Of a stretch of 64,000 bases of DNA, positions 6,493 through 35,118 are shown piece by piece. Every line of letters starts with the position of its first letter. Within the stretch, counting starts at the first letter, position 1. The notes under the pieces are model-generated. The model worked only from the letters and a program-made list of their open reading frames with translations, was not told the DNA's origin and searched no databases. The DNA comes from Cirrosporium novae-zelandiae. Lineage: Eukaryota. Location of the stretch: NCBI GenBank assembly GCA_026023565.1, contig JAPETS010000015.1, forward strand, positions 248,001 through 312,000, written 5' to 3'. The translations under genes and the position numbers were made by a program.

Positions 6493-8529
6493 ATGAATTC
6501 TTCTGCAGAAACTGGGTTACTCTTTCGGATTCCTATCACTCTCCCTGCCCTTTGTGGCATCCTCTCTCATATATTTCTTTGGAACCGAGGCGAATGGGAT
6601 GGCATATTCTGGGCAATTGCACTTGCTGTCATTGTAATGCACCATCTTATTATTCTCGCACAGTCCTGGTTTGGCCACGGCATACTTGACTCCAACCTCC
6701 GTCTGCTTCTCCTCGAAGCGTTCTATACTGCAAGCGTGCTTGGCAGCACTGTTATTTACAGAATTTTCTTTCACCCTCTTCGCAAGTTCGCCGGTCCAGT
6801 CTGGGCTAAAATCTGGGTATGGTATAGAGTGAAAGCTACACTTGCTTCAGGACATCGGCACGCAATGGTACTGCACGAATTACATGGAAAATATGGTGAT
6901 ATCGTGAGAGTTGGTATGACTTCTACATACATACATACATACTCCCTGGTTACAAATGGTTTTATGAAACAAATCAAGACAAGTTTACTAACAGAAGGTA
7001 GCTCCGGACCAGCTTTCTATCAATCTAACTTTGTACGTTGCGGGGGGATATCCCCACCAGCTTCATCAGAGCCCTAAGATATACTGAACGCGCCACAGAG
7101 CAATCCCTCTTGTTCATGGGTCCTCGTCAAGTTTAATAAAATCCGTGTGCTATGAAAATCCAATGGAGACATGCATTAACTGGGAGCGTGATCCTACATT
7201 GCATCGCTTACGTAGAGCGAGCTGGGAAAGTGGGCTTAATCATAAAGGTTCTACGAATCATGGACTTTTTACCAGGAATGTGTCACTTATGATTAAATTT
7301 AGCCTGTGCTACCTATTTTCCGCGGATTCTCTCTCTCACAAACCTTTTACTATTTCGTCTTGAGGAGTTGAATGGCGAGCCCACTCCAGCTAATAGATGG
7401 TGCCATTTCTACACTTTTGATGTGATGGGTGAGCTCGGCTTCGGACAAAGTTATAATCAGCTTGAGAAATGTGAAATGCATCCCACTATTCGCATCATCA
7501 TGAAGTATATGTGTGTAGGCGTCTATGCCCTGATGGTTCCTTGGCTGCATTGTATCATCAGCAGACTTCCTGCGCCTGGGATTGAAAAACCAGACTGGGA
7601 TTTCAGAGCATTTGCTGAAGAGGCTTTGGAAAGAAGAAAAAAGGTTAGTGCCTCATTTCTAGCAAATCTATAAAGCAGGAATCTATTCATAAGATCTCCT
7701 ACCGGTCTCTAGGCAATCCTAAAACTATACCGGTCGAAATGATCTATTACAAATACTAGTTATAGCTCCTTTCTGAAAATTATACTCACTAACCAAAAAA
7801 ATTCAGAGTATCCCCAGTACGCCCGATATAATAACTCATGTTCTTTCTTCAACCATTAAGCCTAGGTTGACTCCGAATCAATTGATATCTGATAGCCTCA
7901 TCCTTCAAGTCGGCGGCTCTGACACAACTACCTCTGCCTTTGTTCATATCCTCTACCACCTAGCTCGTTCTCATTCTATCCAATCGAAACTTTTCGTTGA
8001 AATCTCTAATATTGTCACATCTCGTGGGCAGATTACGTGGCGCGCAATATCTCGCCTTCCTTACCTTGAGGCGGTTATAAACGAGACGTTGCGCTTACAT
8101 CCTCCAGCGCCTAGTGGAATGCCTCGTCAGGTACCCACGCATGAGGTGTTGGTGGTTAATGGTATTACTATCCCTGGTGGCACCAATATCTCCACACCTA
8201 CTTATAGCCTCCATCACTCGCCGCTCTCCTTTACTTATCCCGAAGACTTTATCCCTGAGCGCTGGACCACAGAATCACAGCTTATCACGGATAAAAGTGC
8301 CTTCTGTCCATTTGGAATGGGACCTTATGGATGTCCCGGTAAGTATTTGGCGATGATGGAAATGAAGTGTTTTGTGGTAGGGGTAGTAGGCAGGTTTGAG
8401 GTGAAATTTCCTAAGGGGGTAGATTTAGAAGAGGTGGATAGGAGAATAGATCGAGAGTGGAAGGACTTTAATACTACGCAAGCTGCAGAGGTAGAACTTG
8501 TATTTATGGCAAGAGGAAATGAGAGATAA
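6493..8529 (+). CDS. Cytochrome P450 monooxygenase (4 introns, frame intact when spliced)
   Basis: N-terminal TM segments, FFHPLRKFAGP, I-helix GGSDTT, K-helix ETLR, PERW and heme motif FGMGPYGCPG; exons join in frame. Confidence 0.92.
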
Positions 8530-14991: not shown

Positions 14992-17895
14992 CTACGTCCG
15001 TTTAGCAAGTTCAATAACCTTCATGGCCGCATCCTCGAATTTGTCAAATGCATGGAGCGGAAGCGCACTATCGGCAATCTATCCAAGCCCACGAAAAAAA
15101 AATCGTTAACATCTGTATGAAAAACGAAACCATTGATCAATGATAAAAGTAGGAGACTTACCAATTTCTGGCCCTCTTCCTCGTTGGTTCCCCTTAGCCT
15201 CACCACAACCGGAACCTTCATCCCCAGATCGCGAAATGCCATTATGATCCCGTTAGCGATCATATCGCAAAGGGTAAGGCCGCCGAAAACGTTGACGAAG
15301 ATGACGCGCACACGAGGGTCGGAGAGGATAATGCGGAAGCTGCTTTTGACGGTTTCGGATGTGGCTTTTCCTCCCGTGTCGAGGAAGTTGGCGCAGCTTC
15401 CGCCGAGACGGGTGAGGTTGTCCACGGTGTTCATGGCGAGGCCGGCTCCGTTTACTGGGGAGATATATTAGATTGATGGGATAGGCGGTAAGATTAAGCT
15501 AACTGACCAAGAGTACCGATGCTACCCTTTCCTTCAAGCCTGGAAGCAAAATAAATATCAGAGCTGGCTTCATCGACCACTTAAAACACGAATTTCATGA
15601 AGTGATGGACTTAAATTGGAAAGTGGGCGAGGGGATTGAGTAAACGCGGAAGGCATTTTCAGTCATCTTTTTGTTTGTCCTTCCGATAGTTTATGTGCTC
15701 TTTCCAACTTGCAAATGACGGGGACATCAGCATCCATACCTAACATAAACAATTCCATCCTTCTCAGCCTCGACCTCTTCTGGAACTTCCTCCTTGGTAT
15801 CCCGCAAATTATGTATGTCGGCCTGTCTCTTGGAACCTTTAAATGCCGCATCATCAAATCCAAATTTCGCTCCTTGGACATGAATCTCTCCACCATCCGT
15901 GAGGGTACATTTTGTCTCTAGTACGAACGCTTCCTTAGCGACAAATATATGATAGAGGGTCTGGAGATGTTTCGAAATGATGGGAGCGGCTGTTAATGGA
16001 ATATCCAAATGAGTAGCAACTTTTGAGATTGTGGAGTCGTCAAGACCTTGAAGATAACTGAAGGGGAATCTTTTAGATTCTGAAAAGACCTGGCCAGGAC
16101 CAGTTGTACGAGAGGCAATAACGCATGGAGCACATAACTCTCGATCGACTGATATTGCTAAAAAATATTCTGGCGAACCTGACGATGGCATCTTCGCTGC
16201 CGGAATTCCAAATGTGTCGAGCATAGCCAAAGTTTGCTGTTGCTTGAGATATAGTGTTCGAACTCGAGTAAATGGGGCTGATGCAACGTTCAGTTGAGAC
16301 CGTCGTCTCATTGTATGGAAACTACGTCGCCGGTTTCCCATATTATAGCTCTGACAAGATGTTAGCAAGCAGTCTTTGTCATTATCTACATGCCAAGCTT
16401 GCCGTCTTTATGGGCTCTCTATTGTTTAATAGCCCTTTCATCCGGGGACCAAATTCCTCTGGGTGCCGGACCATTTGGACTCCTGCATTTTCCAACGTTC
16501 TGAATTTTGTTGTAATATCAGGTTCTCCCAGACTGACCCATGCACCAGCGTGGCCCATTACACGTCCAGGGACCGCACAAATACCCGCAAGCACGGCCAC
16601 AATGGGTCTGTAGCATTTGTTAGCCATTTTCAGTGGCTTTAGCTGCGAGATATACAAAGTCACCTACTTAGGATGTGGGGTTCTATTTCGGTAGTCTTTA
16701 ATCCATTCGGCGGCCTCAATTTCTGCATTGCCGCCAACCTCGCCAATCAATATGATGGCTTGTGTATCATCATCATTCTCAAATAGTTTGAGAGCGTCGA
16801 TGAAGCTGGTACCTGCAATAACATCCCCACCCATACTAATCGCTAAGCTTTGACCAACTCCAGCACGAGTCAGAGACCCAACAGTTTCATAACTAAGAGT
16901 CCCGGATTTCGCAACTATTCCTACATGGCCAGGTGTATAGCAGGATAGAGGCTGAAATCCAATGCGGCAATGGCCAATAGCAGAGATTATCCCAGGTGCA
17001 TTTGCACCCACCAATCTAGATTTGGATTGTGTTCGCAGAATTGAATGGATCTGGGAGAAGTATTAGGAACTTGATTTCTGTGGACGTGAAGATGAACCCT
17101 CCCACATACTCGAAGTAGCTCATGAAGCGGTATGTATTCAGCAACTGCCGCTATAAGAGGTATCTCGGCTTCGATTGCTTCCTCGATTGCTTGTGCAGCC
17201 TGGTGACCAGCAACGTAAACCGCGGTCGCATCTGGGTTCAGACGCTCTTTAGCCTTTGAACAATTCAGCTTTACATGCAGACAAGACTAATATTTAGAAA
17301 TATGATTGCATCCTTACTGCACGAACAGTAGGTAGTACGGGTAATCCAAGATGCTCTCCGTTTCTGCCTGGAGTTACTCCCCCTACAATTTTTGTTCCCC
17401 AAGCAATAGATTCTTTGGCGTTAGCAGTAGCCTGGAATACCGAGTTAGCAATCACTGCAAAGTCAGCCATACATCAAGAGAATCCGGTCATGCAAGGTGT
17501 TCGTCCCAGCTCAGTCTTCATTCAATAATGTATCAAGCGACTAAGATACTAAAGACCATCCGAATAGTGCATGTTACCATATCTCCTTCGCATAGCCTCA
17601 AGGGTTTTGTATTGTTCACATGCCTGTCTTCCTGAAGTACAATCAACAAGACTCATCTTATATAACTCCAAAGGGCTTGAAAAGGTGCATCCAGAGAAGA
17701 TAAGACAAGGATGTTACCTGTAAAGCCTTGAAAGATTACCCTTGTGTGGGAGCCAATTTTGAGATTGGGGATGGTATCCGAGTATGCAAAACAAGAAGAG
17801 CTGGTAGAGAAGCTTGTTGGATGGGGAAGACGCAACACGTTATTATAAAAGATAGAAATTGAACCCTTTGCAGCTCGACGAGAGAAAAAAGGCAT
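14992..17895 (-). CDS. Fused succinyl-CoA synthetase-like alpha+beta protein, probably mitochondrial (about 10 exons)
   Basis: Alpha part: [54 protein letters not shown], phospho-His motif MGHAGA. Beta part: [55 protein letters not shown] at 17895, TAG at 14992-14994; the model needs two GC-AG introns. Confidence 0.85.
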
Positions 17896-19701: not shown

Positions 19702-20352
19702 TCAACAACCACCAATCTGTTCTTGATGTACCTCTAGAGTGTCTCCATCCTGCATCTCGAGCTATAGAAAGAAAAGGTCAGTTTCCGCACAATACCACTA
19801 TAACACTGCCAAAGAGCAACACTACACATCAAAAAACTGAAATAAAGCCGCCAAGTTCAATCAGTAGCTATATGGTTGTCTTGCCACTACGTCAAGTGAA
19901 GCAACTCTGAACTTCATATGTTGTATTTCACATACAAACGGGTCACGCTCACTATTCCAGCAATCAAGTAAAAATAATCATTTTTCCGGGCTTCTAGAAA
20001 AACGATTCCCGTTCGGTGGGCCCACATGGATAGGGTTCTCCTGTAAGTGAAATACGATGCAGATCGCAATGAAAGCCTAGTGGCATAGGGAAAAGCAAAT
20101 ACGAAGTGAAAGAGGTAATCTTACGCTTTCTGGAGAATCTGTTGGGTTCACTCTTGTTCCATCAAACAGAAATCGGACTGTCTTCATGTCTTTTCCCTGG
20201 CGATCACAGAAAGCGTCCATGAGCTTCTTCAGTTGTGTAGTTCTCTTGATTTTGAAAAAAACTTCATTATTGTTATCTGTAACTTTGATGTTTAAATGTT
20301 CAGTGGCTGGAGCCTCGGCCTTTCCTGTTGGAGAAGCATCGTTTTCAGACAT
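19702..20352 (-). CDS. SMT3: SUMO (small ubiquitin-like modifier)
   Basis: EHLNIKVTDNNNEVFFKIKRTTQLKKLMDAFC..RFLFDGTRV..PES|LEMQDGDTLEVHQEQIGGC*; 363-nt intron 19762-20124; probable 5'UTR intron about 20438-20516. Confidence 0.96.
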
Positions 20353-20815
20353 GATTGCCGTTGTAAAGATGGGGCTGCGAGAGAGTTGAGGTTGTAGGGT
20401 GGGGTGTAACGGCCGAAAAGCGTGTCAAACGAATAGCCTACTGCCAGTTAAATTGTCAGAATACCAGACACAAAATGAAGATACCAGAACCGTGTAATGG
20501 ATGAAGGAAAACTCACGTGGGATGTGGGGATGAAGAGGATATAGTGAACGCGTCTGGCGAGGCTGGGATTTTGAGTGGCGCTGAAACCGAGTTGAGGAAG
20601 GAATGAATTGTAAGAGAGAGGATGTTTTAAATGGACTTTTGGGGGGACTTCAAAGAAATCTAGTAACCATCAGGCTGGTGCCCCACGCTTAATCTTAGCG
20701 CCGCGGCAGGGCTGAACCTCTTTTGAATGGTTGCATTGGTCCGCTGGATGGATATTGTTAAACCACAACCGCTCCAATTCAACCAAGATTTATTTTCCCC
20801 AAATACCTAGGTATC

Positions 20816-21900: not shown

Positions 21901-24900
21901 ATGGCACCCATCACACATATGCCAAGGGCCCAAGTTAACACCATCTCAAAGGTACGTTTACGTTCCTAACGTTCTTCCACTTTATTCTCCAACTTCCCGC
22001 GTCAAATCGCCGCCAACTCAACAACTAACAAGTCACTTTACAGTTACCACAAGAAGGAAGCTGGGGATTTCACCATGTCAGTGTTTGGAGGCATTCAGTT
22101 TCATATCCAGCTCCAGAATAATCGGGGCTTTCCGAGTTACGGCCAGGTCGCTAATATACACCAGCAATCCGGAGAGACTTCAGATATTTCTCATGAGGAG
22201 GAAGGAAGCTTAGTCGAATTTGACATGGACACCGTTGATGAGATGGACCAGGAGGTTGAATCAGGTCATTATACTTTTATTTAGTTGCTCATAATTTTAA
22301 AGAGACTAATGTTTTCTCATGCGCAGATGGAGATTCTCCCGGTATGCTGATACCAGGTGATGTCAACGAAACCCTTTCTCAACTAGGACAAACCGCCGAT
22401 CGGGTCAGCCAGCAAATTGAAGAATTCGCAAAGAACCTCGACCAGCTCAACCCTATGAAGAGTAATGATATATATGAGAGACGCCGAAGTGCTCTGGCCC
22501 TGGTCGTGAAATATCGTCATGTCGCCGAGTCTGCATGGGACCACCTTCATCGAACAACACAGAAATTCAACCGACAAAGGCAAAATGAAAATGATGACAG
22601 TTCGGATGAAGGCAGGCAGAACTCCGAATCTCAGACACTAGAAGAAATGAACCAATGCACCGCTGAAATTCATACATGGAGACTATTTGAATACATGCTG
22701 GACCTTGAAGGCCTCAACTACCCTATAGTGGATGGAAAACCCGTATATCCTAAACAGGATGTCCAGATACATCGTTACAGTCCGGAGAATGACTTGTGGG
22801 TTGATTTCATGAATAAGAACCCAGATGCACGGGAGAGGCAGACAGTACTTCGGTGGCTTGAGGAGGTTGCAGATGAGACTAGGGAGGATATCGATACCGT
22901 TGTTGATCAATTGGAAGCTGGATCCGATAGGCAAGGCCTCTGGACCAATGGCTGGCTTTATACCAAAGAGGAAATAAAAAAACAAAAACGACTACGCTCT
23001 TGGCCCCAACCTCTAGAGCCGAATTCTCCTGGCATTAACAAAAGTCATGTCAGTCTAAACAACAAATCTGCTCTTGCAACGCAACTCGACCCTGACGCGG
23101 CTTCACGTCAACAGCATGCTCTCACAAAGGAGGACCAGAATTTTGAGAAGGCCATCTGGCTGGGCTGCTGGGAAATGCTACGACGCGGTAAGGGTTGGAA
23201 AGATGTCAGTGAATGGTGTAAGGAACGGGTGGAGGGATGGAGAGCCATTAGTATCCGGCCTTCATTCCGGGGCTTAAGGCTTTTGGAAGAATCCCTTCCG
23301 TCAGGTGAAGATAATTCGCCTGCACTAAACTACCAGTCCCGCACTCTTTGGAGACATGCATGCCGTGTTACGGCCATGGAAGGCACTTTCGATGACTATG
23401 AGAACGGAGTATATGGACTTCTTAGTGGAGACTTCCCTAGCGTAGAGAAAGTCTGTCGCAATTGGGACGACCTTCTATATGCAACATACAACTCCTTAGT
23501 TCTGGCACAGTTCGACTCCTTTCTACAATCAACCTATCCATCTCGCTTTCCTCCAACACTCAGGCAAGCAGATATTGCACGTGTTCCCATTGATCCCCAT
23601 ACAACTACGCCCAAAGTTATCTCAAGTTTAGCTGTACATGAAGTCGGACAGGAAGCTACGAAAGATCCGTTTAAGATGATACATGCCGCTCTAATAGGCA
23701 AATCATTTGCAGACTTTGCTATCAGGCAAGGTGCCATTATAGGAGAAGTCGCCAATGCGGATACCAAATCGAATATTATCCAGGAGATACCCAATAAACC
23801 GCCGGGATTAACACGTGATGATCCTAATGTTGCCGATAATGCTCAAACCCTTCGAATCATGGCTCACATGCTTCTAATACTTCAATCTGTATTAGCACAA
23901 CAAGTTACCAATGATCAACGCATCGCCATAGATAATGTCGTTGTTGCCTATATCCAATTCCTCAAAATATCCAGGAAGATGGAATTGATCCCACTCTACG
24001 CTTCGTTCTTGGATGAGGAGAGGAAGCGTACTGTTCTTGGTCGAGTCTTCATTGATGTCACCGACTTCAGCGAAAGGCAGGTCCTTGTGAAACTAATGGA
24101 CGAATTCAAAATCAATGTATTGGACGTTGTGACCACACAGTTACAACTACATAGGAATGATGCGTCCCAGAGAGAGGAGAATACCCATATAGTGCAGGTT
24201 CAATTCCTTGAAAAAAGGGGCGAGTATGTAATGCCTGTAGTCAAGAGCGACTTTATTGGAAACAAAGTCAATGACGATGCCGAGTTGATAATTCGCTGTT
24301 TTGAATGGTATCTTCATCTTAAGGGTCATTGGAGACAAACAATGAAAGTTGGAGCAATCTTATATCGAACGTTTTTTGGTATGTTCCCCTTTTTCTTTGT
24401 TTTCCCGGGCATTTGGCTTACTCCTTCTAGTGGCTGGACAACTTGCCGCGGCGAGACAGCTTTCCATAAGAGTACCTTTCTCCAAGATCTCAGAGACAAA
24501 AATGAAGCATATACTCGGAAGGCCCGTCAACCTAGCTCGGGGGTTTGATAATCCGGATGCTGACATCGAAGAGGAAATGGATGAAGATATGACTAAATCA
24601 ACTAGATCAAGACCAAGGCAAAGACGAAGTGACGATGAAATTGAACGAGAAAGAATGAAGCTACAAACTCTACAGCAAGAAGCGAAAACATACTATGAAC
24701 TTGAGTCCCTGATCAATGCATTGGATGCTCTAGATACCTGGAAAGATATCGAAGATCAAATTAACGCGTACGTGTTATCTTTGAATGTTTCCAAAGGCAA
24801 CAACTTATGCTAACTCGTGTGGTAAACAGAGAGGTAAAACCCAGCCACGAACGGTCATGGAAAGGAAAATTACAACGTGGTCTTGATGAAGTCATCTTGG

Positions 24901-25383
24901 CCGTGGAACCTTTATTGGGTGACTGGCTCCTTCACTCCGAAACTCGTAAGCTTTATCCCCCTAATCATACACAGCCCCAAACAATTAACAACAATATTCT
25001 CCACAGCCTATGAAGAAAAGCAACTTGGTAGAATCCGCAAGGGATTCCTACCTTCCATCACTATTGCCTATCTTGGTGTCCTATACTATGCAGGCCACTC
25101 CCTCAGCCGCGATCACCTCCTCCGTGCCATGGACCTCGCCACACGCATCGCAGCTCCGGGTTCCCCGGTTGCAGAAGCTTTCCTACAGGCAGGTCGGATG
25201 AGAGAACTTGTGGATGTGCTTGCAATAGCTAGCAAGGCTGTGTTGGCCGCGAATGAAGTTGGAGGCAAGGCAAAAGTGGGTAGGAAAGTTCGGAGAGAGG
25301 GCTGGGGGGAAAGAATCGATGTTTGGACTATTGGGAAGGACGCTATAGGGACAGAAGAAGGGAGTACGAGGATAGAGAATTAA
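21901..25383 (+). CDS. NUP84: Nuclear pore complex protein Nup84/Nup107
   Basis: Multi-exon; EIHTWRL, VLRWLE, LDPDA, WEMLRRG, WRAISI, YENGVYGLLSG, WDDLLY, LRIMAH and LIPLYASFL motifs typical of Nup84. Confidence 0.9.
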
Positions 25384-29000: not shown

Positions 29001-30981
29001 GAGCTGATGGCTATAACTGTCCTTGAACGGCATGGACATTGCGAAATAAACTATTCTCCTATATGCGTGTTTCGGATTGGAGTATCTGTTAATATCTTGC
29101 TCTTGAGCAGCTACAAATGATGAAAGAGAACCTGTCCTGTTGAAATGCCTAAGCAGACAAAGATTTAGGAAATATTGATGACATGAAAGGGAACGATTCA
29201 CCATTCCATAATGACAAAACGTGACAAGTGAGTGGAAGAAAAAAGCTGCGATGCTGTGTGTAGGCTATGTAGAGTCAATATGAGTATGTTCGTCACCGCT
29301 TAATTCAGATAGGAGAACCCAAGAGTCTTAGAGAGATCAAGCTTGGAAGTTCCCTGTAGAGAATTATGGGGTTTTGGGTCTGGAGCAACTTCAAACTTCT
29401 TCCATAGAAACGGATTATCTTGGTATATGAATTGCGTGTTGTTAAATGATCCTCCAACTGTCAACAAGCCACTATGGCCATGACATTTTCGTCACCAGAG
29501 GCTCGTGGTGTTATGGTGTTGCAGACGGCGCGAGAAACACTGCCACTGTCAAATCTCCTCGCAGATCTTGGCCTTATCTTTATAAGTTACAGTGGTAGAT
29601 TGATGATATCGAGCGGAGGTGATTCGAAGCCTTGACCACTCCTCAAAGGACCCGGGTGGGTTAACTAGATTTCCTGGGCAATGACCTGACTTAGGTACCG
29701 GAGAAAGGAGGTTTCGCAATTGCCCAGAGAAGGCCCAGGATTTGTGTGTAAAAAGCAATCTTTTCTTTCTGAGTTGTTTGGAACAGCGCATACTTAAGTT
29801 CAATAGTTGTTGTCGTTATTGCGTGGATATTGGTTGTATTGGGTTGTATCAAGTCCCTGTTGGATGGGCCAAGTCGTGGAAGCGCCCGACGAGGTTGGTG
29901 GTTCGGATGCCGAGAATTTTAAAATTGTGAAGTTTGTGGAGCGAGAGTATAACTGAGAGAGGGTTTTTATTGTATTTTACTTCGTTTCATTTTTCTTTGA
30001 AATAATAATAATGGACGAGAGAAGAACAACCAATAATAGTTACCTAGGTACCTAGGTACATGTATAATGCAGTACCTAGATATGGGTGTGGGAGAAAGGT
30101 GTTCTTCAGGCTTTAGGCTGACTTGGTGTAACTGTGGAAATGCTTTGATTTACCAGGGTTGGGGGGGGTCTCACGGGGGTCGGTTTCGGATATGATTCTT
30201 AGATTAATGGGCAAAGAAATTTATATATTTTATTGCTTCGGTACGTACCTATGTAACTAGGTACCTACCTGGGTATCAAATTTCCGAATTACTTTTATAA
30301 CATAACTAAGCATACAAAGTTATATAACAAACATAACAACATAAAAACGGTTTAGGAGATTTGATAGGTTTTCGCTCGGTATTCCTATCTTAGCTAGAAG
30401 GTACGGGAGAGGCACAACAAGTCAGAAATGGTCAGCTCACATCTCGCATATCTCATCTTCTTTTGATTTGAATATTCGCCTTCCAGTACCTAACTAGGTA
30501 GTTTGGAAGGGAAAAAAAGAAATAAAAATTTCCTAAGGGATGGGCCATGTTAATTGCTTTCCTGGTCCTGGTTTGTGCTCTGGGGTTCTGGGTTCAAACA
30601 CATATTTTGCCAAGTTTTTGGGTTGGGGCTGTGCAAAGAGAGACCCTTTTGTTCTGCCTTGTCCATATCCCTCCCCCCCCATACCACATACAGCTTGCCT
30701 CTTTCTCTCTCTCTCTCTCCCTCTCTTTTTTTATGTTTGATAAAAACTAAAATACTTTTGCTAATTCGTCCTAATTAACATATCTTGTCAATTCTCTCAC
30801 TCTTTCTATGGAGTATCTGAGAAATTTTGACTCTATCAATACTTCACCTTTCTAAATCAGATTTCCCCCCTTTCCCTTTTTACACCTTCCCTCACTTCAT
30901 ACTCGACACTGATGACTTAATTCTCCTAAACTCTACTTCCAAGCGTCTCTCTCGACTTGACGAAGATCGCTCAAGGTCATC

Positions 30982-33900
30982 ATGTCTAATAATGGCAATA
31001 ACAATAATGGCGATAGCTCTAATTCTTCACATAAGCGTCCAAGAGCCCCGACAATAAACATTGACACGTCTGCTGTCAACCCTCCAGCTGTCATACCTCC
31101 TCCAGTAGTCTGTGAACCTACGAATGAAAACGCACTTCCTCAAGATGACCATCAATCTCAATCTCAAGAAATTCACCCCGCCCCATCATTCGAAAGCCGA
31201 GAAAGTCGCCCTACTTCACCTCACAATGTTTCCTCCCCTTCAGCCAAATCACCAACAGCGAAATGGGTCGATCCCGCCCAGAACTTTCTATCCGTCCCCA
31301 ATGCCCGATCACGAAACAACTCTGTGGATTCCTCGGAATCTGGTGGTGATCACTCCCCAATTTCTTATGGTGGAGAGACATTTGTTCCCTCTACTCGTGG
31401 AACAGATTCAAGGAAACACAGCGTCTCCTTTATTGACCAAATAATCAATGATAAAAATGCGCTTAAACCTGACCCTGGGACCCAGAATGATTTTGAGATC
31501 GAGGACAACAAATTTGCTTACACACCGGGACATTTAAATAAGCTCATCAACCCCAAAAGCTTGAGCGCTTTCTATGCCATTGGAGGTCTTTCGGCGCTTG
31601 AGAAGGGCTTAAGGACGGATCGACATACTGGGCTCAGTGTTGATGAAACGATTCTAGAAGGTACAGTGTCAATGGAGGAAGCTAAATCCAACGAACGCCC
31701 GCCAGTCTCACGTTTCGACACTCACGGTACTACAGCCTCATCAAAACAGCACCGAGAACAATCCTACTACGATCGTAAGAGAATCTTCAAAGACAATCGG
31801 CTCCCTGAAAAGAAATCAAAGAGCTTTTGGCAGTTACTATGGATGGCATACAACGATAAAATGATTATATTACTTTCAATAGCTGCTGTTGTTTCTCTTG
31901 CTCTTGGTATCTATCAGACTGTTAACCCTTCAGACCCGGACGAAGCACACGTAGAATGGGTTGAGGGTGTCGCGATTATCGTTGCCATTTTTATTGTGAC
32001 GTTTGTTGGTGCTCTCAATGACTACCAAAAGGAAAGGCAATTCATCAAGCTGAACAAGAAAAAGGAGGACCGAAATGTCAAGGTTATACGTTCAGGCCAA
32101 TCTCGTGAACTATCCGTTCATGATATCCTAGTTGGAGACATTATCCACATTGAACCAGGTGATATGATCCCGGTTGATGGCATCTTCATCGAAGGACACA
32201 ACGTGAAATGTGACGAATCATCCGCCACAGGAGAATCTGACATCATTAAGAAACAGCCTGCAGATGTTGTATTCAAGGCCATTGAATCTCGTGAGGATAT
32301 TAGGAAACTTGATCCGTTTATTTTATCAGGAGCAAAAGTAAATGAAGGAATGGGCATCTTTCTCGTCACTTCTGTTGGTATCCACTCTAGTTATGGGAAA
32401 ACAATGATGGCCCTACAAGACGATCCAGAATCAACCCCTTTACAGTCGAAATTGAACAAACTTGCAGAATGGATTGCAAAACTTGGTTTGCTTGCTGGGG
32501 CTGTTCTATTTGTTGCGCTGTTTATCAAATTCCTTGCTACGACAGTGACAAAAGACAACCTCAGCGCTGATAAGAAAGGTCAACGGTTTCTAAACATTTT
32601 CATCACCACCGTAACGATCATCGTTGTTGCTGTTCCAGAAGGATTACCACTCGCCGTGACACTAGCATTGGCCTTTGCGACCACCCGGATGCTCAAGGAT
32701 AATAACCTCGTTCGACATCTACGTGCCTGTGAAACCATGGGTAACGCTACAACAGTGTGTTCTGACAAAACGGGCACTCTGACTCAAAATCAGATGACTG
32801 TGGTAGCTGGTACTCTTGGCACCTCAGCAGAATTTGATCCCAGGAAAATCCCATTGGTTGCTAAGGTCGGAAATGGATCTGATATTGCACCGATCAATAA
32901 AGATGCACAAGACCTCCTCAAAGAGGCCATCGTCCTTAACACGACGGCCTTTGAAGGGACAGATGAAAAGGGGAATGCAGCTTTCATTGGTTCTAAAACA
33001 GAGAGTGCTATGCTCACCTTCGCGCAGAATGCTCTTGGAATGGGGCCCATTGCTGAGGAGCGTGCGAACACAACTATTATTCAGCCTGTTCCTTTTGATT
33101 CAGCTAACAAATATATGGGTACTGTGATTAAGTTATCAAACGGCAAATATCGTGCACATGTCAAAGGAGCTCCGGAAATCCTATTGCCAAAATGCGGGAG
33201 GATCATTCAAGATGTAACCCAGGGCTGCAATGATAGATTCATAACTCAAGATGATCTTCAAGATGTTGTTAACACCGTCGAGAGCTTTGCTTCTCGCTCA
33301 CTACGAACCATTGCTGTCCTTTACAAAGATTATGAGCAATGGCCACCCCGAGGAGCCCCGGTTCAGGACGATGATCCCAAATCTGCAGTATTTGATAAAA
33401 TTCTCAAGGAATTTATCTTTTTGGGTATTGTTGGTATCCAGGATCCTCTTCGTGATGGTGTCGCGGATGCCGTCAAAACATGTCAGCGAGCTGGTGTTGT
33501 CGTTAGGATGGTCACAGGTGACAACCTGATTACGGCAAAAGCTATTGCTGCGGAATGCAATATCTATACTGAAGGGGGCATTGTTATGGAAGGACCCCGC
33601 TTCCGAACATTGTCAAAGACCGAGATGAAGCAAATCATACCCAAGCTACAGGTACTCGCACGCTCCAGTCCTGAGGACAAACGGATTTTGGTTAAGCGAC
33701 TGAAGGAGATGGGGGAAACCGTTGCTGTAACCGGCGACGGTACCAATGATGCGCCAGCCTTAAAGACAGCAGATATTGGTTTCTCTATGGGAATTGCTGG
33801 AACCGAAGTCGCTAAGGAAGCATCTGCAATCATCTTGATGGATGACAACTTTGCGTCAATTGTCAAAGCTCTCATGTGGGGCAGGGCAGTCAACGATGCT

Positions 33901-35118
33901 GTCAAGAAGTTTCTACAGGTTCGTAACCCAGACCATGATACCAACAGGCGAATACTAATCAAACTATAGTTTCAAGTCACGGTCAATATCACAGCAGTTA
34001 TCCTTACTTTCGTCTCCGCGGTGGCAAGTGATTCAGAGAGCTCAGTTCTCACGGCTGTACAACTACTTTGGGTTAACTTGATCATGGACACTTTTGCAGC
34101 TCTCGCGTTAGCAACCGATCCTCCATTGGAAAGTGTCTTAGATCGCAAGCCCGAACCAAAATCCTCCCCGTTAATATCCGTCAATATGTGGAAAATGATT
34201 GTTGGTCAGTCCATACTACAATTAGTAGTGACATTTATTCTATACTTTGCTGGTCAACATTGGCTTGGAATGCACGGAGACGATGATAAAGCTCATAGTA
34301 CTCTGGTCTTTAATACATTTGTCTGGCTGCAAATTTTCAACCAGTATAACTGCCGGCGACTGGATAACCATTTCAATATATTTGAGGGACTGCAACGAAA
34401 TTTGTGGTTCATTGGAATCCAGTTTATTATCATTGGCGGGCAGGTTCTTATAGTATTCGTTGGGGGTGCCGCTTTCTCGGTCACAGACCTGGATGGTACG
34501 CAGTGGGGTGTTTCCTTAGGACTAGGGTTCCTATCTCTCATTCTAGGAACCTTACTGCGCTTCGTTCCTGATCGTTGGGTAACGATGGTTGTTCCGCCTT
34601 CATGGTTCGAGAACAAAGTGATAGATGATGATGGAGAGAATGCGCAATTTGAATGGAACCCTGCGATTGAAGGGATCCGAGAAGAACTCAGTCTTCTGAA
34701 GAAGGTGCGAGGAGGACGATTATCGTCCCTAAAATACAAAATTCAGCATCCCAAAGAGATGCTACTTCCTCGTTCACGAAGCGGTTCTCGAAGCTCAAGA
34801 TCACGAAGTACATCTATTCCGCGGACACCGTCCAACGAGTTCAACGATACCAGTGCCCTCAGTTCCCCTGCACGAACTCCCGAATCTAGCTCACGATTAC
34901 GTGGGCGAAGTCGTTCGAATTCGGCATTCGGTGCTGCTGCTGCCATGGCAGGTGTTGTGGCTGGTAGCATTGCAGGCTGGTCGCCTATCGAGCGTGGACA
35001 TGGGCAAGAAAACGTATCATTTCATGAAGCAATTTCTCTTGAGTCTGGTGAGGCAGGTATAGAAGAGGGGCGCGATGAGCATGCAGAACATGAGCAGAAT
35101 GACGCCTCCAAGGTTTGA
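30982..35118 (+). CDS. PMC1: Vacuolar/PMCA-type (P2B) Ca2+-transporting ATPase, 1 intron (33919-33969)
   Basis: TGES, VAVPEGLPLAVT, CSDKTGTLT phosphorylation site, MVTGDN, VTGDGTNDAPAL, QLLWVNLIMDT. Confidence 0.96.

Follow-up and report, generated by a model that had tools for sequence, protein, structure and literature searches.

Succinyl-CoA synthetase (SCS) is canonically encoded by two genes, one per subunit (SUCLG1 with SUCLA2 or SUCLG2; SucD and SucC in E. coli). Composite mitochondrial precursors that are cut internally by MPP (mitochondrial processing peptidase) are few, according to PMC8734313, which lists Arg5,6, Atp25, Etp1, Rsm22-Cox11, SPAC22A12.08c and rice RPS14 and no SCS-like fusion. 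Arg5,6 is described there as being cut by MPP at an internal R-2 site (arginine at position -2 from the cut) with an aromatic +1 residue (RSY), in a stretch that resembles a mitochondrial targeting sequence (MTS) and is conserved among fused homologues; the abstract of PMC5063612 describes Atp25 as being cut three times by MPP. Here we analyse an SCS-like alpha-beta fusion gene on the minus strand of a 64,000-nucleotide stretch of Cirrosporium novae-zelandiae DNA (the window; GCA_026023565.1, contig JAPETS010000015.1, positions 248,001 to 312,000), to which all coordinates below refer. Its two halves are joined by a basic linker, and internal cleavage of this linker by MPP is the best reading of the evidence, with a probability of roughly 0.55.

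The fused protein resembles SCS in an alpha part that matches almost completely, in the beta C-terminal domain together with the second half of the ATP-grasp fold (E ~1e-52), and in its retention of the phosphohistidine loop, E208alpha and N264beta. In contrast to SCS, it is the product of one gene ordered alpha->beta, lacks about 80-100 ATP-grasp residues, has N199 and D213 replaced and carries G-L-T in place of G-I-V in the substrate loop. As in Arg5,6/arg-6 and Atp25, a leader is combined with an internal MTS-like junction stretch that bears an R-2 motif and is conserved among fused homologues, cleavage being predicted in the present case; unlike in those precursors, both halves belong to a single enzyme as its two subunits, and what serves as internal signal appears to be a presequence that the downstream subunit has retained. 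ATP-citrate lyase (ACLY) and the ADP-forming acyl-CoA synthetases (ACD) contain the same domain types in one chain, and structural matches were obtained to ACLY (Z 28-30, on the alpha part) and to PH0766 (Z 14.7, on one domain). ACLY, however, is ordered beta->alpha, with a full ATP-grasp fold and a citrate-synthase-like module, whereas the fused protein ends after the beta CoA-ligase domain and has no citrate-synthase-like/citryl-CoA lyase module. ACD differs in domain order, and in both ACLY and ACD an internal presequence-like linker is absent and sequence similarity is far below that to SCS.

Architecture of the fusion and its linker

The gene was assembled from a six-frame translation in which SCS-alpha-like and SCS-beta-like pieces are interrupted by short introns. 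The predicted product (684 amino acids, 73.9 kDa) runs from a presequence-like leader through a complete SCS alpha and a 35-residue basic linker into an SCS-beta-like part. The features are as follows.

17895-14992, minus strand: entire gene with 10 exons and 9 introns, 684 codons and a stop codon
17895-17785, minus strand: presequence-like leader, residues 1-37, zero acidic residues
17784-16403, minus strand: SCS-alpha part, residues 38 to ~344 (CoA-binding domain, CoA-ligase domain, His loop), exons 1-6
16552-16550, minus strand: codon of His295, the phosphohistidine equivalent in the MGHAGA loop, His in 84/84 homologues
16402-16351, minus strand: predicted GC-AG intron joining the alpha frame to the linker/beta frame, from splice-pair enumeration
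16350-16246, minus strand: presequence-like linker, residues 345-379, 35 amino acids, from composition and alignment
16332-16300, minus strand: motif 1, 11 residues, candidate R-2 site S354/F355, boundary 16321/16320 (RS/FHT)
16266-16243, minus strand: motif 2, RVRTLYLK, candidate R-2 site T376/L377, boundary 16255/16254 (RT/LYL)
16254-15740, minus strand: beta ATP-grasp remnant, residues 377 to ~548, in which the first strand and helix are followed at once by the second half of the fold
15539-14992, minus strand: beta C-terminal CoA-ligase domain, exons 8-10, Pfam Ligase_CoA E 1.2e-22

A preliminary description of this DNA had proposed a single gene with leader, complete alpha subunit, linker and beta subunit. 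The single gene stands, its start and stop agreeing with 14992-17895; the beta subunit proved incomplete, as detailed below. Single exons match Pfam CoA_binding, Ligase_CoA (alpha), ATP-grasp_2 (weak and partial) and Ligase_CoA (beta).

Fused alpha->beta homologues are present in many moulds, as the preliminary description had expected: the homologue search gave 201 matches, of which 120 were listed, 84 of these being full-length. The gene model is colinear with all 84, with zero indels at exon junctions, and the highest identity among them is 64% (P0025). The 'short' database entries of 370-470 residues all start inside alpha (MGHAGA...) and continue through the linker into beta. An exhaustive search of representative sequences returned 183 matches, mainly exon-sized fragments, and the 13 that we read added divergent members. 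We also scanned metagenomes, where 597 stretches passed tblastn confirmation and the best 80 were retained as loci, L001 being the only one read frame by frame. This contig, of fungal type, encodes the His loop (GRIMGHAGAF), a linker (...QRRLMHTSARR...EQRRNISL...) and the entire beta-like part in one uninterrupted open reading frame (ORF). A motif scan of these 80 loci gave zero matches, L001 included, since its second motif differs; judged by match spans alone, the loci other than L001 resemble ordinary sucCD-type loci. The fusion of alpha and beta genes exists, and because L001 bears the same junction as an uninterrupted ORF, it is real independently of the splicing inferred for the window gene. 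Going by the homologue sequences, the tandem precursor gene is conserved across filamentous ascomycetes.

To delimit the halves we used AlphaFold2 models of two homologues. That of P0025 (70 aligned sequences) has a mean predicted local distance difference test score (pLDDT) of 81.2 and a predicted template modelling score (pTM) of 0.81. P0025 matches human SUCLG1 with a phmmer E of 1e-85 and a Foldseek TMt of 0.92, and its alpha part superposes on pig SCS-alpha (1euc_A) with Z 40.2 and a root-mean-square deviation (rmsd) of 1.8 over 303/306 residues, model residues 39-348 lying on chain residues 1-306. Pig residue 1 thus falls on P0025 residue 39, and the alpha fold ends at residue 345-349, matching the last residue of pig alpha. 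Because of this superposition we place the end of the leader at the mature alpha N-terminus; since the alpha part superposes end to end on pig and human SCS-alpha, the linker starts at the alpha C-terminus. Of the alpha residues, the E208alpha equivalent is retained in 83/84 homologues and the His246alpha equivalent in 84/84, while the C123alpha equivalent is Ala in the window gene, as it is in 5/84 homologues. The first VIA structure search, with the full P0025 model, returned alpha-type matches only; the beta part was exposed by a second model, that of P0023, which starts inside alpha and has a mean pLDDT of 84.4.

The linker was found exactly where the preliminary description had placed an acid-free stretch (16246-16350), with 0 D/E, 8 K/R and 7 S/T. 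For composition we used 71 sequences that passed motif filters and skipped 14 (P0018, P0103 and 12 others whose N-terminus could not be recognised). In the folded domains of these 71 sequences D+E amount to 11.8%, K+R to 10.1% and S+T to 11.6%, and at this acidic content 35 acid-free residues are expected with p ~0.012. The linkers contain 2.1% D+E, 22.5% K+R and 22.7% S+T; the acid-poor linker is not due to chance, because only 2.1% D+E is found across 71 family members. N-terminal leaders of the family (n=67) have a similar make-up, with 0.8% D+E, 18.8% K+R and 24.0% S+T. An equivalent stretch occurs in 83/84 homologues, the exception, P0103, being gapped and probably a model error. We trained a log-odds score on leaders versus domains, excluding the linker from training, and applied it in 21-residue windows: the best internal window falls in the linker in 64/71 proteins, and linkers average 0.51 and leaders 0.58, compared with 0.28 for the highest-scoring window elsewhere.

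Two arginine motifs lie in or at the end of the linker. The preliminary description had named their loss from homologues as a sign against its proposal; R(-2) is kept in 83/84 homologues at both. At motif 1, position -1 is G in 69, S in 9 and A in 3 of the 84, and position +1 is F in 35, L in 23, Y in 19, M in 3, I in 2 and V in 1, followed by H(+2) in 83, T(+3) in 79 and R(+5) in 80. The divergent members from the exhaustive search retain [RK]-R-x-hydrophobic-H-T. At motif 2, position -1 is S in 30, T in 29 and N in 16, with L(+1) in 82, Y(+2) in 76 and K(+4) in 78. The spacer between the motifs is freely variable at 9-20 residues. Both motifs fit the R-2 rule that PMC8734313 gives for the internal MPP site of Arg5,6. 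The leaders contain a conserved F-S-T-S-x-R-R nine residues before a YxDT motif (F in 68/71), which resembles the F-H-T-M-R-R of the linker.

In the P0025 model, pLDDT falls below 50 only at residues 1-38 (leader), 294-301 (His loop) and 345-380 (linker), and in the P0023 model only at 67-101 (linker), so that the conserved, presequence-like linker is also predicted to be disordered. The Leu that follows R102-T103 of motif 2 in P0023, L104, is the start of the superposition on three beta references: it lies on residue 1 of E. coli SucC (1scu_B, Z 27.7, 288/388 aligned), on residue 1 of pig beta (2fp4_B) and on residue 53, in entry numbering, of human SUCLA2 (6g4q_B), with which that protein begins once its annotated transit peptide is removed. 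This bears out the earlier statement that RTLYL sits where mature SCS-beta begins. Because the motif-2 Leu superposes on beta residue 1, a cut after R-x of this motif would recreate the canonical mature beta N-terminus, and the linker is best read, from these models, as a presequence kept from a beta gene that was formerly separate.

Truncation of the beta part and loss of the nucleotide site

About 80-100 residues of the beta ATP-grasp fold are deleted. The Pfam ATP-grasp_2 match covers profile positions 106-196 of 202 only and scores 21 bits, under the cut-off of 29.5; in alignments, positions 107/112-253/259 of SCS-beta are matched by exon residues 59-203. From the beta N-terminus to the xxVDR motif there are only 28-48 residues in all 84 homologues, compared with ~110 in E. 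coli, and none of the 13 members read from the representative search combines a full ATP-grasp fold with the fused architecture. In structure, only 132/234 residues superpose on the isolated SCS ATP-grasp fold (6no5_B, Z 18.1, rmsd 2.0), and for the whole beta part Foldseek gives a TMt of ~0.66 with ~295 of 385-395 columns aligned. The whole-chain beta rmsd of ~12 A stems from domains being arranged differently in the model without alpha, and we relied instead on which ranges aligned and on comparisons with the ATP-grasp fold alone.

By database annotation, E. coli SCS-beta positions 46, 53-55, 99 and 102 contact ATP, and N199 and D213 bind Mg. The former fall within the deleted segment. In the alignment to E. 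coli SucC, the N199beta equivalent is K in the window gene and mainly R (29), K (23) or Q (21) in homologues, with N in 1/84; the D213beta equivalent is G in the window gene and in 53 homologues, with D in 7/84. The substrate-site residues of SCS-beta, N264 and G321-I322-V323 in E. coli numbering, are kept in part: the N264beta equivalent is N and the G321 equivalent is retained in 84/84, and the loop reads invariantly G-L-T, I322 being replaced by L and V323 by T in 84/84. To judge from these residues, site I (CoA, acid, phospho-His) is kept and site II (nucleotide) is lost, so an ordinary nucleotide-forming SCS activity appears unlikely. The preliminary description had spoken of an acyl-CoA ligase-like enzyme; in the ordinary sense this probably does not hold, the nucleotide-binding half of the ATP-grasp fold being deleted and the Mg ligands replaced in nearly all members.

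Because the ATP-grasp cleft is missing, only site-I chemistry would be possible, that is acyl-CoA + Pi <-> acyl-phosphate + CoA and formation of phospho-His. The protein may thus be a nucleotide-independent acyl-CoA/dicarboxylate enzyme, a Pi-dependent CoA transferase or thioesterase rather than an enzyme of substrate-level phosphorylation; our most likely guess for the activity is nucleotide-independent, Pi-dependent CoA transfer or thioester hydrolysis.

Proposed internal processing and alternative explanations

If the precursor is processed as we propose, the N-terminal leader would drive mitochondrial import, and MPP would remove the leader and would also act in the linker, at either or both of its R-2 sites (RS/FHT, RT/LYL). 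The products would be an alpha-like chain of ~34 kDa (residues ~37-354), a basic peptide of 22 residues (355-376) and a beta-like chain of ~33 kDa (377-684), and the two chains, released 1:1, would assemble like the SCS alpha-beta pair. The fullest form of the proposal, a self-stoichiometric precursor cut three times by MPP through a fossil beta presequence and giving a mature pair with site I only, such as a phosphate-dependent dicarboxylate CoA transferase, is rather unlikely to be right in all its parts.

The alternatives depend in part on how the window gene is spliced, and the remaining rows of the gene model are given here.

17895-17718, 17631-17624, 17431-17318, 17253-17110, 17050-16668, minus strand: exons 1-5
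16607-16403, 16350-15740, 15539-15508, 15454-15162, 15078-14992, minus strand: exons 6-10
17631-17624, minus strand: 8-nucleotide micro-exon, encoding R-Q of GFTGRQ and restoring GFTG-RQ-AT

The alpha and beta parts lie in different frames; the unspliced alpha frame meets a stop at 16384, and the linker/beta frame is open from 16407. The fused frame in C. novae-zelandiae therefore needs a GC-donor intron, as became apparent when we enumerated every GT/GC-AG pair that links the two frames without a stop. Among the 12 candidates, five have GT donors (16480, 16471 and 16449, the last with three acceptors) and each removes the conserved alpha C-terminal helix, in which position 332, M335 and L338 are invariant in the homologue alignment; the GT-AG options were rejected since conserved alpha residues would be deleted. 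All donors that retain the helix through GLL are GC: GCCCAT at 16415, a poor match giving a 67-nucleotide intron with its acceptor at 16349, and GCAAGC at 16402 and GCATGT at 16393, which share a CTAAC branch point and the CAG acceptor at 16351 and give introns of 52 and 43 nucleotides. A fourth GC donor, GCTATT at 16433, retains the helix only partly. The 52-nucleotide variant suits the sizes of the other introns of the gene (53-200 nucleotides).

The predicted intron 17623-17432, which follows the micro-exon, also has a GC donor (GCATGT). Exactly two residues occupy the micro-exon position in 71/84 homologues (RQ 65, KQ 6), and a GT-AG alternative at exon 2 was rejected because 23 unmatched residues would be inserted. 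Two GC donors in nine introns are unusually many for one fungal gene and, as far as the sequence goes, might reflect regulated splicing. In a Penicillium lagena gene model (P0043), 16 extra residues (YGCSTSQ...) follow ...VYV(R/K) at the point where the window intron 15739-15540 starts ...YGC*; because this annotation retains an unspliced intron there, the intron position is common to both genes.

Several observations weigh against internal cleavage by MPP. The log-odds score is our own proxy, built on composition and trained within this very family, and a crude stand-in for TargetP or iMLP. The invariant His(+2) and Thr(+3) of motif 1 are not demanded by known MPP rules and hint at another reader of this motif, for example a second peptidase, or at another function. 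The leader of the window gene lacks Arg at -4 and -3 before YxDT, present in 52/71 and 20/71 sequences, and internal cleavage requires a strong N-terminal presequence, as stated in PMC8734313. The fusion in this species rests on a rare predicted GC-AG intron, with a second one required at the micro-exon, and the reaction is purely what we infer. Single-chain relatives, namely ATP-citrate lyase and fused ADP-forming acyl-CoA synthetases, function uncleaved; the halves can therefore assemble with no cut between them, and ~40 disordered residues could be a simple tether. The main rival explanation builds on this point and holds that the protein is an uncleaved single-chain enzyme with a flexible tether for a linker, the resemblance of this linker to a presequence aiding import by receptor or chaperone binding or serving another role. 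A disordered linker of 28-48 residues is long enough to span the heterodimer, a fused SCS-superfamily enzyme (ATP-citrate lyase) is among the structural matches, and the invariant His and Thr of motif 1 are unexplained by MPP rules. A pure tether, however, would be expected to drift and to gain acidic residues, which is at odds with the acidic content of the linkers relative to that of the domains, and it would account neither for the near-invariance of both Arg(-2) motifs nor for the position of motif 2 exactly at the canonical mature beta N-terminus. We regard a permanently uncleaved chain as possible but doubtful.

Two products could also arise in this species without proteolysis, if retention of the GC-AG intron ended alpha at the stop at 16384 and beta were translated from the ATG at 16341 with the linker as its presequence. 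The alpha-frame stop sits 43 nucleotides upstream of this in-frame ATG, weak GC donors favour retention, and the linker read from the ATG is a textbook leader. Yet the branch point and acceptor of the candidate intron are good, it would be unusual for a eukaryotic mRNA to be translated from a further, downstream start, and neither L001 nor the ORF-type database entries have a stop or an intron at the linker. The Met is not conserved either: homologues have no Met before motif 1, Met follows HT in 52/84, and the homologue alignment led us to reject an internal start codon as a conserved feature. Such a route is improbable. Still harder to sustain is the view that the locus is a decaying pseudogene or an assembly or annotation artefact, with the GC donors being errors rather than real introns. 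The need for such donors in 2/9 introns speaks for it; against it stand exons free of in-frame stops, homologues that are colinear throughout and up to 64% identical, and the retention of all catalytic and invariant family residues with the Ala at the C123alpha equivalent as the sole exception. Internal cleavage by MPP thus remains our preferred reading.

Annotation, neighbourhood and significance

Many predicted members of the family are present in databases, with names such as 'succinyl-CoA synthetase alpha subunit, putative' and 'CoA-binding domain-containing protein'; these are generic or, where an SCS alpha subunit is named, misleading. Description of the fusion, its linker or the truncated ATP-grasp fold was not found in the full-text literature searched, a scope outside which most subscription journals and supplements fall. 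Two further fungal proteins, P0269 (662 residues) and P0215 (608 residues), combine an SCS-beta-like part, without alpha, with an N-terminal domain that by eye is like a hotdog-fold/MaoC-type hydratase. In Penicillium models P0037, P0092 and P0093 (1460-1492 residues), the homologue and a carnitine acyltransferase domain (PF00755) make up a single chain, and A. fumigatus models P0124, P0125, P0128 and P0133 are longer (890-903 residues), with an adenylylsulfate kinase in the same cluster. We rejected both partners as functional clues, since they differ between genera and are probably merged neighbouring genes.

Genes adjacent to the fusion in the window encode a P450, an LRR protein, a SUMO-like protein, Nup84/107, an HD-domain protein, a P-type ATPase, a proteasome subunit and an FF/WW protein; those with coordinates, which are of housekeeping types, are the following.

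20077-20424, minus strand: SUMO-like (Rad60-SLD)
22260-25383, plus strand: Nup84/107
30961-33969, plus strand: P-type cation ATPase
7777-8529, plus strand: cytochrome P450
3081-3638, minus strand: proteasome subunit

No metabolic cluster was found among the flanking genes in the window, and they hence give zero functional hint.

If internal cleavage by MPP is true, the SCS-like fusion would add to the composite precursors a widespread member with a clean, conserved junction. It would be the first whose halves are subunits of one enzyme and whose internal signal can be traced to an ancestral presequence, and it would be well suited, as a natural substrate, to work on the choice of internal sites by MPP. 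With the catalytic His and the CoA/acid site but no nucleotide cleft, this SCS paralogue raises the question of what site I does alone, and fungal mitochondria may harbour an acyl-CoA reaction that has so far gone unrecognised.

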